Origin: Chlamydiales bacterium
Lineage (GTDB): Bacteria; Chlamydiota; Chlamydiia; Chlamydiales; JAJFMA01
Assembly (NCBI GenBank): GCA_030679955.1
Contig: JAUXSF010000018.1
Span: 4,320-68,319, forward strand
Direction: 5' to 3'
DNA: 64,000 nt
Shown: piece by piece, positions 59,441 to 63,000 of the stretch
Layout: the number at the start of each line of letters is the position of its first letter
How positions within the stretch are numbered: position 1 is the first letter of the stretch
Notes under the pieces: generated by a model
The model's input: the letters and a program-made list of their open reading frames with translations, nothing else
The model's database searches: none
Told to the model about the DNA's origin: nothing
Program-made: the position numbers and the translations under genes

Positions 59441-60007
59441 CTAAGGAGCATTACAAATAGTGCCATTTTCTTCCTCGATGGCTTTAAGAGCCTCTTCGTA
59501 AGTCTCGGTAAGTCCTTCTTTTATCTTCAAAAAGTTAGAGCCCTGTTCTTTAACTTTGTACTGTAGAATGCCTTGGGAAAGGTTTGCTACGGTGATCCAA
59601 GGGTCATAGATGTTGCCTCCATCTCTATCATAGACAAATAGGACAACATCCAAACTTTGAATTCCAAAAGGGGGTTCATATAAACAGGCATCAAGGTATG
59701 GTACTTCTTGCGCCGTTTCTAGAATGTCTTGAGCAGAGGAGAGCAAAATTTTTCGCAAATGCTCTTTGGAAAGACCCCCTCTTATCTGAAAGCTGAGCGT
59801 AATAAAACGAATAGGACCGCCGGGCATAGAAGCCCCTGTGCCAATGCATTTGATATGATATCGATTTTCAATCTTGCTAGCTGATCTATTAATAATTAAT
59901 GAAGCTGCTTGATCGAAATTAGGCCGACAGCACTGAGGTCTTGCAACTGCGAAGCAGTGTGTGGAAAATAGCTGGATAGCTGTAGTAATAACCAAAAATA
60001 TCTTCAT
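59441..60007 (-). CDS. exported immunity-like protein, paralog 3 (cognate position next to the Rhs gene)
   Basis: 188 aa with a signal peptide (MKIFLVITTAIQLFSTHCFA) and core KCIGTGASMPGGPIRFITLSFQIRGGLSKEHLRKILLSSAQDIL. Its ATG overlaps the Rhs stop (ATGA at 60004-60007). Confidence 0.75.
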   Translation of the reverse strand: MKIFLVITTAIQLFSTHCFAVARPQCCRPNFDQAASLIINRSASKIENRYHIKCIGTGASMPGGPIRFITLSFQIRGGLSKEHLRKILLSSAQDILETAQEVPYLDACLYEPPFGIQSLDVVLFVYDRDGGNIYDPWITVANLSQGILQYKVKEQGSNFLKIKEGLTETYEEALKAIEEENGTICNAP

Positions 60008-63000
60008 ATTCTTTGTCCCTGGCTGTTCGTATACTGTTGAATGTGATGCTGAATAGGATCGCTGTATGTTGGGCTGCTAATACTGTGGTCAAAGAAGCTG
60101 GCATCTTTATGCGAAGGAACATCACGAATGGTGCCTTGCTCTCTTGCTCTGGCCTCACCTCGTTTATCAAAACACCGTGGAATGAAATCTCGGCGGGGAT
60201 CAGCTGCACGATAGTGAATTACCTGACGACAAAGATCCCGATCGATATATACCGCTGGCGCGATAGCCAGCACAATAATTCGGTTACGCAAATGTTCGGG
60301 ATAGGTTAACAGGGCATTACGAACATGGATGACGCCCTGACTTGTGCAAATTTGTAAGATAGTGGGTTCTGCCGCTAAACTTTTGTCCCATTCTTTATGC
60401 AGGAGCTCTACCGGGCGGGTTGTTACGTGATGAACACCTAAAATACACTCCATTATATCAAAGATGATGTTATGAGTCTGATTGCATATGAAGTTCACAT
60501 TGAATCCACCCGATAGATCTGAAATGTGCATGGCATGATTAAAGGCGTCTCTAAAGTGATTGCATATACCGTTGATAAATCCTATGGCCCCATATTCAAG
60601 TTTTTTGCGATCTTCACCTAGATCTCCGGTTCTAGATGCTGGAACCCTTGGTGTTATTTTCTCGAAGTTCGGGCAGTGATATATGCGCTGGCCGCGTCCA
60701 TAGGTATAGCGGCGTGCTTGCGGATCCCATTGCTTATAGCCTGTGCTATGGCGTTGCTGACCATTTAGAGGTCGTCCACATTTGGCACAACGTTCTGTAC
60801 AAAGACCATATAGATCTATGTGAACTAAAGGGCTGTTATGAACGTAGGCGTAAAGATTGGGGCCGTCTTCGAATCCGCTAGGATCCGGCGTGAGCCAACG
60901 ACCTACTTCAGCATCATAGCTACGACGTCCAAAATTGGTTAATTTGCTTTCAGCGTCATAGCGCTTGCTCGCAAATTGCCAAGGGCTTAAGTGCTTTTTT
61001 GAAGGCGACCAGCCCCAAAGCCAGCCAGGTTGATAGCAGGATGCCTCGCCAAACGCACTATAACGGTAAGCCTCTGCAACTTTGCCGTTGTCAGCGTTGA
61101 CAAGCGCTACGATGTTGCCACTATGATCGTGCAGGGGCGCGAATAGCTTGTCCCCAAGTTCAATGGCAACTGCTGCACCAATTTCAGCACCTAAGCCTCT
61201 TCCAATCATGCGAAACTCGGTCAGCTTATCTGCTTCAACCGTGCCAATGTCCATCTGATCCTGGTAGAGATAGTCTTGATGAGAAACGCGACTATCCTTG
61301 TCATAGTGGCTTTTGCTAATGCGACGGTTGTAGGAGTCGTACCTGTATTGCCAGCGTTGGGTGCCTGCTTGAACTTCTATCAGGCGATTTAGGGCGTCGT
61401 AACGATAGCGATGGCTTTCCTCCGGACTCTGCTTTTCCACACGGTTGCCGCGGGCATCATAATCGTAGCTTGTGTCTTGTTGGGTTTGCAGTTGATTCAA
61501 CACGTCAACCTCATAGTCCACATCGTCTTTTTTCATTCGATTGTTCAAAGAATCGTACTTATAACGATGATTAAAGGCACCTTCTTCGCTAGCTAACTGG
61601 TACAGGGTATCGTAGGTATAGCGGTTGATGCTCGGACCAATAGCATCCTTTTTTTGCATTATGAGCAGATTGCCGATGGCATCGTAGCCATCTGAAGGGA
61701 TATGTTCTTCGAAGTGGGTGCTATGAATGCCTGTGGTACGTTTTAACGCATCATAGCAATAGGTGATATCTCCCGCATTTTTTATCATTTGCGCGGAAGT
61801 CAGCTGTCCGGCCGAATCGTAGTCAAGATAGCGATGACTGTACAGTTCATTACCGGAAGGGTCGCAGCGCGCGACGTTTCTCAGAAACCCAGCGTCATAA
61901 CAATAGCGAACCGAAGAAGCATCAGGAAGGCTCAGGTCACCCATACGACCCAATCCATCATACCCATAAGTCATCGTCAGGCCACTAGCAAGGGTTTCGC
62001 TGACTACACGGTTCTCGCGATCATATTGACGTATGGTAGTCGTGTTGTGAACTCCATCAAATATCTGCAGGATATTGCTGTTGCTATCGTACGTGAATTG
62101 GTAGGAAACCGAACCATCCGATGACTTATAGCTGCCGAGACGACCCATAGAGTCATAATGGTAGTTGATTTCCGAGCCATCAGTGTGAATATCGGTAACC
62201 TTTTCTCCAAAAGCATTGTAGGAATAGTACGTAACGCGGCGTAGAGGGGAGCCAGCAGCTTCGATAAGTGTTACAAGTCTCCCGATAGAATCATACTGCC
62301 ACTCTGTAACCATTTCTCGGATTGCTTTACCGTCGAGCAATGCTGTATCAGTTTGCTTAACTAGTTTGCCGTGTGGATTATAGAGATAGCTGGTGTGAGC
62401 AATTTCTTGTCCAAACATGTCCTTACGTGTAATCTGAGTGGGGTGACCAAAAATATCATGCTCTGTGATGGCTTGTTGGCCTATTGGATCAATTACAGTG
62501 ACTCGAAGCGTCTTGCCAGAATAGTCGTAGCGGGTCAAAGTTCTGTTTCCAAGTGCGTCAACCACTTCAGAAGGCTTTCCAAGTGGGTTGTAGAGGGCGC
62601 ATGTGGTCGCTGGACCAGCGGCAGTGAAGATAGTGGTCGAACAAGGGTTACCCGCCAAATCGTAAGCGGTTTGAGTTCGTGTGTAAACATTGCCCTTGCC
62701 GTCTTCAATGCGCTCTTCGATAATGCGATCCAACAGGTCAAATTCGTGAGCAGTAACACTGATATCGTCCTCTGAAGGGCCGACCCACTGGATGGTCCGA
62801 TACTTGCGTCCCAGTGAATCGTACTCGTAGCGCGTCCATGTATGTTCCGTGGCAACTACAGTCTGCCTGCCCGCTCCGTCGTAGGTATAGTGCTTAGTGT
62901 TACCATTGGGATCTACCTCAGAGACAAGTAGATTTCCTTGGTATGTTGCTGTGCTTGTCGTTAAAATTTTCCCGGATGCATCGTACACATCTCTTCGGAT

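Follow-up and report, generated by a model that had tools for sequence, protein, structure and literature searches.

A predicted serine-hydrolase tip on a chlamydial Rhs protein and its linked family of putatively exported immunity proteins

What does the tip of a chlamydial Rhs protein attack, and where, if the immunity-like proteins encoded behind it all seem to be exported? The question is raised by a 64,000-nucleotide stretch of a Chlamydiales bacterium genome (GenBank assembly GCA_030679955.1, contig JAUXSF010000018.1, positions 4,320 to 68,319), referred to here as the window, in which an Rhs gene ends in a 265-amino-acid (aa) tip. The original prediction, made from the letters alone, was that this tip is an esterase or phospholipase that acts on the membrane or envelope. 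All coordinates are those of the window, and the Rhs tip, the immunity genes, and the remnants all lie on the minus strand. Structure prediction and residue conservation support the assignment of the tip as a lid-less α/β-hydrolase with a predicted Ser154-Asp205-His239 triad. We put at roughly 60% the probability that the locus encodes the toxin-immunity end of a Sec-exported Rhs protein of an environmental chlamydia, in which a serine hydrolase acts on an ester-type bond that lies outside a rival's cytoplasm and is blocked by an exported immunity protein. The Rhs gene and its tip comprise:

63948 to 60004, minus strand: Rhs open reading frame (ORF), truncated by the window end
60802 to 64000, minus strand: Rhs core (RHS/YD repeats), truncated by the window end; Pfam RHS_repeat, 1.6e-53
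60007 to 60801, minus strand: C-terminal tip of 265 aa, with a Cys-containing linker ahead of the toxin domain
60667 to 60801, minus strand: linker, residues 1-45, with four Cys (C1, C5, C8, C43) and low-confidence structure
60007 to 60690, minus strand: predicted lid-less α/β-hydrolase toxin domain, residues ~38-265, from an AlphaFold2 predicted local distance difference test (pLDDT) of at least 90 from about residue 41, Foldseek matches, and a DUF687 match at E = 4e-4
60568 to 60573, minus strand: N77-G78, predicted oxyanion-hole loop after strand 73-76, from conservation and model
60340 to 60342, minus strand: S154, predicted nucleophile in the elbow C-T-S-Q-G, from conservation and model
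60187 to 60189, minus strand: D205, predicted triad acid, in the loop after strand 193-199, from conservation and model
60085 to 60087, minus strand: H239 (of D238-H239), predicted triad base, in the loop after strand 225-228, from conservation and model

The motifs that the original prediction quoted from the tip (CTERCAKCGRPLNG...YHCP, GAIGFINGICNHF, ILQICTSQGVIHV, RRDFIP, and FFDHS) are all present in the 265 codons from 60801 to 60007, which the core terminus ...NSPLVHIDLYGL directly precedes. An AlphaFold2 model of the tip, built from a 38-sequence alignment, has a pLDDT of 90 and a predicted template modeling score (pTM) of 0.86, and its strands and helices alternate in the canonical order. 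In the model, S154 lies where strand 148-154 passes into helix 155-165, as expected of a nucleophile elbow of the form small-x-nucleophile-x-small, with Cys instead of Gly at the first small position. D205 follows strand 7 (193-199), and H239 follows strand 8 (225-228) and precedes the last helix. All 50 matches listed by Foldseek against the PDB are α/β-hydrolases, 29 of them at E ≤ 1e-3, and the fold on which the original prediction hinged was thus recovered. The top E values (5e-5 to ~1e-3) belong to Est1E, PETases, LpqC, monoglyceride lipase, pancreatic lipase, and thioesterases; PHB depolymerase and prolyl peptidase are also among the matches. The best template modeling (TM) scores come from the small lid-less carboxylesterases 5dwd, 4ftw, and 3cn7 and from the Legionella effector RavL. 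Superposition on the carboxylesterases/lysophospholipases PE8 (5dwd), PA3859 (3cn7), and RspE (4fhz/4ftw) and on RavL (7x2p) gives TM scores of 0.45-0.50 on the query and 0.50-0.59 on the target. The compact fold and the Ser-Asp-His order are shared, but identity to the tip is only 10-14%, neither Pfam nor the PDB links these proteins to it by sequence, and they are non-toxins that lack an immunity partner. When the PDB was searched by sequence, with the tip itself and with two family profiles as queries, no solved relative was detected: the only matches were to Rhs core ends (YenC2, TccC) and, marginally, to the esterase 5d8m (E = 0.05). An NCBIfam scan of the tip gave no match.

Conservation was counted in 142 family representatives that are no more than 50% identical pairwise:

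G78 (oxyanion loop): 142/142
N77 (oxyanion loop): 132/142
S154 (predicted nucleophile): 142/142
G156 (elbow): 136/142
D205 (predicted acid): 141/142
D238 (before the predicted base): 134/142
H239 (predicted base): 142/142

Conservation of the tip motifs exceeds chance by far. The residues originally picked as catalytic candidates, the Ser of TSQG, the Asp of RRDFIP, and the His of FFDHS, proved to be invariant or nearly so and to occupy the canonical triad positions. The elbow had been described as a variant of xHSQG; the Ser is indeed invariant, but the relatives mostly have CHSxG (122/142) and the window tip has CTSQG. His precedes the Ser in 122 of the 142 sequences and Thr in nine, including the window tip, so CTSQG is a minority yet recurrent form of the elbow.

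The Pfam family nearest to the tip is DUF687 (PF05095), which aligns with tip residues 73-220 over profile positions 38-180 of 537, with 19.5 bits and E = 4e-4, below the 25-bit gathering cut-off. In a per-member Pfam scan, 29 of 38 relatives matched DUF687 at E ≤ 1 (best 4.7e-18), and P0047 (33.6 bits) and P0037 (27 bits) scored above the cut-off. The next Pfam matches are weak and all of the α/β-hydrolase type (DUF3089, Hydrolase_4, Palm_thioest, Abhydrolase_8, and Cutinase). DUF687 comprises Chlamydia-specific predicted inclusion-membrane proteins, including CT326 and CPn0066 (PMC3048545), and a survey placed it in the α/β-hydrolase superfamily, without catalytic residues and with a C-terminal transmembrane bundle (PMC11878206). 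The Rhs tip and DUF687, of which CPn0069, CPn0381, and CPn0882 are further members, appear to share a homologous α/β-hydrolase-like domain, and both are chlamydial. However, the tip matches only the first third of the profile, keeps the Ser, Asp, and His, lacks the transmembrane bundle (it stops 26 residues past H239, without a hydrophobic region), and is Rhs cargo with an immunity gene. Because of the sub-cut-off score, the partial profile match, and the missing bundle, the tip is classed here, on sequence comparison, as a relative of the DUF687 hydrolase-like domain with its putative catalytic residues intact and not as a member of DUF687.

The profile search of the tip that had been proposed was run with HMMER, exhaustively, over 1.84 billion representatives. 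It delimited a toxin-domain family of at least 650 clusters (50% identity) at E ≤ 1e-30, almost always at the C-terminal end of Rhs proteins: the domain is C-terminal in 146 of the 151 best matches, the host proteins are typically 1700-2900 aa long, and the full-length ones that were scanned are Rhs proteins (RHS_repeat, DUF6531). A word-indexed search had given only three relatives, and the rarity that this implied was shown by the exhaustive search to be a sensitivity artefact. A locus scan with nine trimmed domains as query and one genome per species gave 52 toxin loci:

Chlamydial (Parachlamydiaceae, Rhabdochlamydiaceae, Neptunochlamydia, and others): 38/52
Unlabelled: 8/52
Verrucomicrobia: 4/52
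Bacteroidetes: 1/52
Aerophobetes: 1/52

The toxin and immunity families are almost confined to Chlamydiota. In the window, three immunity genes lie downstream of the tip:

59441 to 60007, minus strand: immunity protein 1 (188 aa), signal peptide and α+β domain; its start overlaps the toxin stop (ATGA)
58779 to 59336, minus strand: immunity paralog 2 (185 aa), signal peptide; 58-59% identical to immunity 1
57772 to 58314, minus strand: immunity paralog 3 (180 aa), lipobox-like IASGC; 44-46% identical to immunity 1

The mutual identity of the three is 44-59%. The three signal peptides and single lipobox read in the original prediction are there: each paralog begins with a hydrophobic leader, and the third has the lipobox pattern (LMIASGC), which paralogs 1 and 2 lack; these two look like signal-peptidase I substrates. 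In the AlphaFold2 model of the immunity protein (pLDDT 85.8), a helix at the N terminus is joined by a flexible linker to a compact α+β domain. A profile search gathered 466 clusters (90% identity) of the family, all annotated as hypothetical and none with a Pfam domain. The immunity proteins matched no family in per-member Pfam scans (scattered noise only), in NCBIfam, or in a PDB sequence search, and Foldseek found no convincing PDB match to the fold (best E = 0.013, TM ≤ 0.33; OsmC/Ohr and MamM-CTD). The best match in BFVD (4.8e-3) is to an unnamed protein and allows no assignment. These searches are in line with the earlier suspicion that the family is undescribed. An N-terminal hydrophobic segment was found in all 103 full-length immunity homologs, preceded by Lys or Arg in 97, and 10 of the 103 have a lipobox; export, which had been proposed for the window proteins, is thus suggested family-wide by this heuristic.

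Toxin and immunity genes are closely linked. An immunity-family ORF follows the toxin within tens of bases on the same strand at 43 of the 52 loci, and the same adjacency is seen in three full-length homologs (L055-L057). Three of the loci without an adjacent immunity ORF are cut by contig ends, and six have room downstream and no immunity-family gene (L024, L026, L033, L050, L052, and L054); these six have a different partner or no obvious one. Across 41 adjacent pairs, toxin and immunity identities are correlated (Spearman 0.80, a value reached in 0 of 2000 permutations), with shared ancestry adding to the correlation. At some of the loci that lack the immunity family, a divergent hydrolase homolog precedes a different gene: a multi-pass membrane protein in L050, an 83-aa Cys-rich membrane protein in L052, a 558-aa protein in L054, and a 402-aa exported protein in L024. 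The most divergent of these, L052 and L054, may represent a separate subfamily.

Because the Rhs protein itself appears to be Sec-exported, such toxins might in general require an exported immunity protein, and the hydrolase tip was therefore compared with other tips at Rhs loci that have core ends like that of the window. Among these loci, four carry the hydrolase tip followed by the immunity family, and 11 carry unrelated tips. The ORFs behind the 11 unrelated tips have a maximum 12-residue hydropathy of -0.32 to 1.80, and none reaches 2.0, whereas 102 of 103 immunity-family members do. The lack of a hydrophobic segment in the ORFs that follow other tips indicates that export is specific to the hydrolase tip type, which supports action outside the cytoplasm. 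At the start of several unrelated tips (L058, L061, L070, L072, and L077) there is a Gly-rich hydrophobic stretch, and the ORFs behind these tips lack a hydrophobic segment at the N terminus; the Gly-rich stretches may serve the membrane entry of toxins that act in the cytoplasm. The hydrolase tip begins without one.

The N-terminal part of the Rhs protein, with its signal peptide and DUF6531, lies outside the window and was seen in a public Logan contig (L002) that is identical to window positions 53020-64000 (0 mismatches in 10,981 bases) and reaches beyond the window end. The full-length protein is 1830 aa long and consists of DUF6531, RHS repeats, and a YD shell; a domain scan of it found no PAAR. 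By a hydrophobicity heuristic, its N terminus (MLRSLAMLTALLFFSSATLNA, followed by DS) resembles a Sec signal peptide, and such a signal is found in 58 of 66 long Rhs homologs. The core closes with the cleavage-type motif SPLVHIDLYGL (DPSGFEDGPNLYAYVHNSPLVHIDLYGL). RHS repeats, a core motif of the PxxxxDPxGL type, and a variable tip after it mark the protein as an Rhs/YD polymorphic toxin, as do the immunity gene directly downstream and the orphan tip/immunity modules, and unrelated tips are found on related Rhs cores. Beyond the window end, at L002 positions 356-1261 (plus strand), a gene for a 301-aa conventional α/β-hydrolase (Abhydrolase_1, 2.9e-22) lies 62 bases upstream of the Rhs start.

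The window has the layout of a classic Rhs locus with orphan modules, and the region behind immunity protein 1 contains, besides the two paralogs, the following:

59333 to 59440, minus strand: orphan tip remnant 1, 35 codons from the 3' end of a displaced toxin (HHDASYFDHSISSPTY...), beginning at the immunity 1 stop codon
58619 to 58750, minus strand: 43-aa ORF with a textbook lipobox (MRILFLACITALLVGC...), between paralog 2 and remnant 2; called as a gene on the identical public contig
58311 to 58607, minus strand: orphan tip remnant 2 (98 aa, ~tip residues 163-265), without the Ser region
57557 to 57661, minus strand: relic of a fourth immunity gene (SGPIRFVTLSLQIRGSLCKEKLRRILVTSAQDILV), from an immunity hidden Markov model match (3e-08 in L002) and the translation

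The three toxin/immunity junctions share a ...GGACAA..ATATGAA overlap. The FFD(H/R) patch that had been read in both orphan copies is present in remnant 2 as FFDRH, that is, with Arg at the catalytic His position, but remnant 1 has YFDHS and not FFDH. The final codons and stop of immunity 1 (...ICNAP and stop, 59441-59460, minus strand) match the homologous toxin sequence VPSHKDAS in the same frame; the TCG of the main tip corresponds to the TAG stop of immunity 1 and marks an old recombination junction of orphan module 1. Immediately beyond the last intact paralog, the relic of the fourth immunity gene adjoins the 3' end of the convergently oriented gene at 56117-57562. Tandem toxin-fragment/immunity arrays also occur in some other genomes (L047, L053). 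At the chromosome ends of Candidatus Neptunochlamydia, such an array (L047 3001-6357 and L053 19-2187) holds at least 3-4 modules and spans the start of the circular record.

The nearest known systems share parts of this arrangement. Type VI secretion system (T6SS) Tle lipases pair with periplasmic Tli immunity proteins (PMC9860674, PMC13133936). Like Tle1-4/Tli, the window pair combines an α/β-hydrolase of the serine-hydrolase type with an exported or lipoprotein immunity protein (here by heuristic) encoded next to the effector, and by analogy the same logic, envelope attack from the periplasm, may apply. In contrast to Tle proteins, neither the tip nor its 38 relatives match DUF2235/DUF3274, the elbow is C-[HT]-S-x-G and not G-x-S-x-G, delivery would be by a Sec-signal Rhs without PAAR or nearby T6SS genes, and the immunity fold is unrelated to any solved structure in the Foldseek PDB search. 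Polymorphic toxins also carry the α/β-hydrolase cargoes Tox-ABhydrolase-1/2/3, with SUKH, Imm66, or Imm69 immunity; types 1 and 3 are predicted lipases, and the hosts are mainly Proteobacteria, Firmicutes, and others (PMC3482391). These cargoes likewise close polymorphic toxins, including Rhs, but the window family occurs nearly exclusively in Chlamydiota, and its exported immunity proteins form a family of their own; the tip itself may still coincide with type 2 or 3. Enterobacterial Rhs and Bacillus WapA loci resemble the window locus in their RHS repeats, cleavage motif at the core end, variable tip, overlapping immunity gene, and downstream orphan modules. The differences are that the host is an obligate intracellular member of the Chlamydiota, that a Sec signal replaces PAAR/VgrG linkage, and that the tip and immunity families are new. 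The pair is a new toxin/immunity family pair of a kind, an α/β-hydrolase polymorphic toxin with exported immunity, that was already known; what goes beyond the routine is its near-restriction to Chlamydiota on Sec-type Rhs proteins and the homology to DUF687 of pathogenic Chlamydia.

From the computed fold, conserved triad positions, gene linkage, N-terminal hydrophobic leaders, and orphan structure, we infer a toxin that would work as follows. The Rhs shell would carry a lid-less α/β-hydrolase of ~230 aa and release it, presumably by autoproteolysis, after the DLYGL core end. The Ser154-Asp205-His239 triad and the Asn77-Gly78 oxyanion loop would then cleave an ester-type bond in the envelope of a rival bacterium; the likeliest substrate would be a membrane (lyso)phospholipid or another envelope lipid. 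The 188-aa protein encoded downstream would protect the producer and its kin: its leader, be it a signal peptide, a lipobox, or an N-terminal anchor, would take it to the periplasm, and there it presumably inhibits the hydrolase by binding to it. A conserved loop of the immunity family, GTGASMPGGPI, may plug the active site. The two further immunity paralogs, each behind a 3' toxin remnant, would be orphan modules left by earlier tip replacements and probably extend protection to toxin variants of neighbors.

Several points weigh against this proposal. The triad was placed from the order and position of its residues in the model, the window tip has Thr in place of the usual His before the Ser, and the nearest Pfam family, DUF687, reportedly lacks catalytic residues (PMC11878206). 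The fold matches are generic (TM scores of 0.4-0.5, identity of 8-16%), with PETases, thioesterases, and peptidases among them, and nothing in the tip was found to point to a particular substrate. "Lipase" or "phospholipase" is a label that we infer, and other esterases as well as thioesterases and peptidases have this fold too. Signal peptides were called by hydrophobicity heuristics and not by a dedicated predictor. No secretion machinery or T6SS genes were found within 10 kb in the three full-length homologs (L055-L057), nor was any delivery machinery found near the gene. A bacterial target is also not self-evident because chlamydiae are intracellular.

The alternative that deserves most weight, although we consider it unlikely, keeps the hydrolase and the exported immunity protein but replaces the lipid by another envelope substrate, such as a peptidoglycan O-acetyl group or peptide bond, an acyl group of a lipoprotein or of lipopolysaccharide, or a periplasmic protein. 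The α/β-hydrolase fold houses peptidases, thioesterases, and polymer esterases, the Foldseek matches include PETases, PHB depolymerase, prolyl peptidase, and thioesterase, weak Pfam matches point to Palm_thioest and Hydrolase_4/S33, and the tip lacks the lid that is a common lipase feature. Yet the best TM scores belong to small carboxylesterases of the lysophospholipase type, the known α/β-hydrolase toxins with exported immunity are lipases (Tle; PMC9860674), and the DUF687 relatives are membrane proteins that have been likened to alleged lipases (PMC11878206). A larger departure, and an improbable one in our judgment, would be a toxin aimed at a eukaryotic host such as an amoeba, in the manner of the TcC cargo of Tc toxins, with the immunity protein shielding the periplasm of the producer during Rhs transit. 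An intracellular chlamydial organism that encodes a TLC ATP/ADP transporter, the chlamydial origin of the related loci, Sec export of the Rhs with no T6SS genes found within 10 kb in L055-L057, the presence of the Legionella host effector RavL among the fold neighbors, and the host role that Zhang et al. propose for one Parachlamydia α/β-hydrolase toxin (PMC3482391) are all consistent with such a target. Against it stand the arrays of orphan remnants and immunity genes in the window and in L047/L053 and the co-divergence of toxin and immunity, which are hallmarks of competition between bacterial kin; moreover, other tips on Sec-type Rhs proteins precede ORFs without a hydrophobic segment, so passage of the Rhs does not by itself require that immunity be exported.

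The remaining two explanations give up either the site of action or the activity. We think it very unlikely that the tip acts in the target cytoplasm and that the hydrophobic segment of the immunity protein is merely an inward-facing membrane anchor. Most family members have TGF in place of a clear lipobox or site for signal peptidase, and many would therefore probably stay uncleaved as anchors, but the Lys or Arg before the segment in 97/103 favors an N-in/C-out topology, the 10 lipoboxes point to export, and the tip lacks the Gly-rich hydrophobic entry segment of several other tips. Hardly credible is a non-catalytic binding or scaffold module, as suggested for DUF687: the reported lack of catalytic residues in that family (PMC11878206) and the Thr before the Ser of the window tip would fit, but Ser, Asp, and His are invariant or nearly so in 142 diverged sequences, a dedicated and co-diverging immunity gene implies toxicity, and loss of the His from the degenerate orphan copy is what an end of selection on activity would produce.

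The proposed envelope-acting hydrolase has wider implications. Two large unannotated families are now delimited, with candidate catalytic residues for the toxin, and obligate intracellular chlamydiae appear to carry classical polymorphic-toxin arrays with envelope-directed cargo. This raises the question of whom chlamydiae fight and how a Sec-exported Rhs protein gets to its target. The relationship to DUF687 may offer the first functional lead for an uncharacterised family of human-pathogenic Chlamydia. We tentatively speculate, as something we would not yet bet on, that environmental chlamydiae wage a Sec-exported, T6SS-independent Rhs warfare between bacteria in which this hydrolase is the commonest envelope-directed cargo, that DUF687 proteins of pathogenic Chlamydia (CT326, CPn0066, and others) are its catalytically dead, domesticated descendants, and that the immunity protein represents a new serine-hydrolase-inhibiting fold.

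The Cys cluster at the start of the tip had been read as a possible zinc knuckle, and as a defined domain this was rejected. The pLDDT is below 50 at residues 1-7 and 13-22 of the linker, the Pfam matches are insignificant (Zn_ribbon_recom, E = 0.14; DUF6011, E = 0.17), and the Cys/His arrangement is not conserved: at least three linker Cys are found in 23 of 91 relatives, but in a motif that differs from the CxxxCxxC...HC of the window. In an exported protein such as this, these Cys could just as plausibly form disulfides as bind zinc. Many relatives share a recurrent pre-toxin linker motif, YGEVExHC[FY]CExHRTCKRGGD (carriers include P0025, P0030, P0032, P0047, P0052, P0059, P0075, P0085, and P0109), which the window tip does not have in that form; it may be a small metal- or disulfide-stabilised module.

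Other genes near the locus were noted in passing. The genes at 54566-55717 (plus strand, 383 aa) and 56117-57562 (plus strand, 481 aa) are adjacent paralogs (BLASTP, 5e-10) built of repeated ~45-aa "TKxEIxxxLxxKWGCxxxxV" units, with no Pfam match. A 582-aa protein without a Pfam match is encoded at 50309-52057 (plus strand) and followed 8 bases on by a 182-aa acidic protein (52065-52613, plus strand); the pair could be a secreted effector with its chaperone. Between putative effector genes, a 421-aa protein (53129-54394, plus strand) has weak, sub-cut-off similarity to ATP-grasp (E ~2e-3). The last ~50 residues of a 771-aa protein (45641-47956, plus strand) are weakly HicA-like (E = 4.7e-5, below the Pfam cut-off). 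The gene at 47946-49283 (minus strand) encodes a TLC-family ATP/ADP transporter (Pfam, 3.4e-70); such transporters mark intracellular bacteria that live as energy parasites, and this one fits the chlamydial origin of the window.

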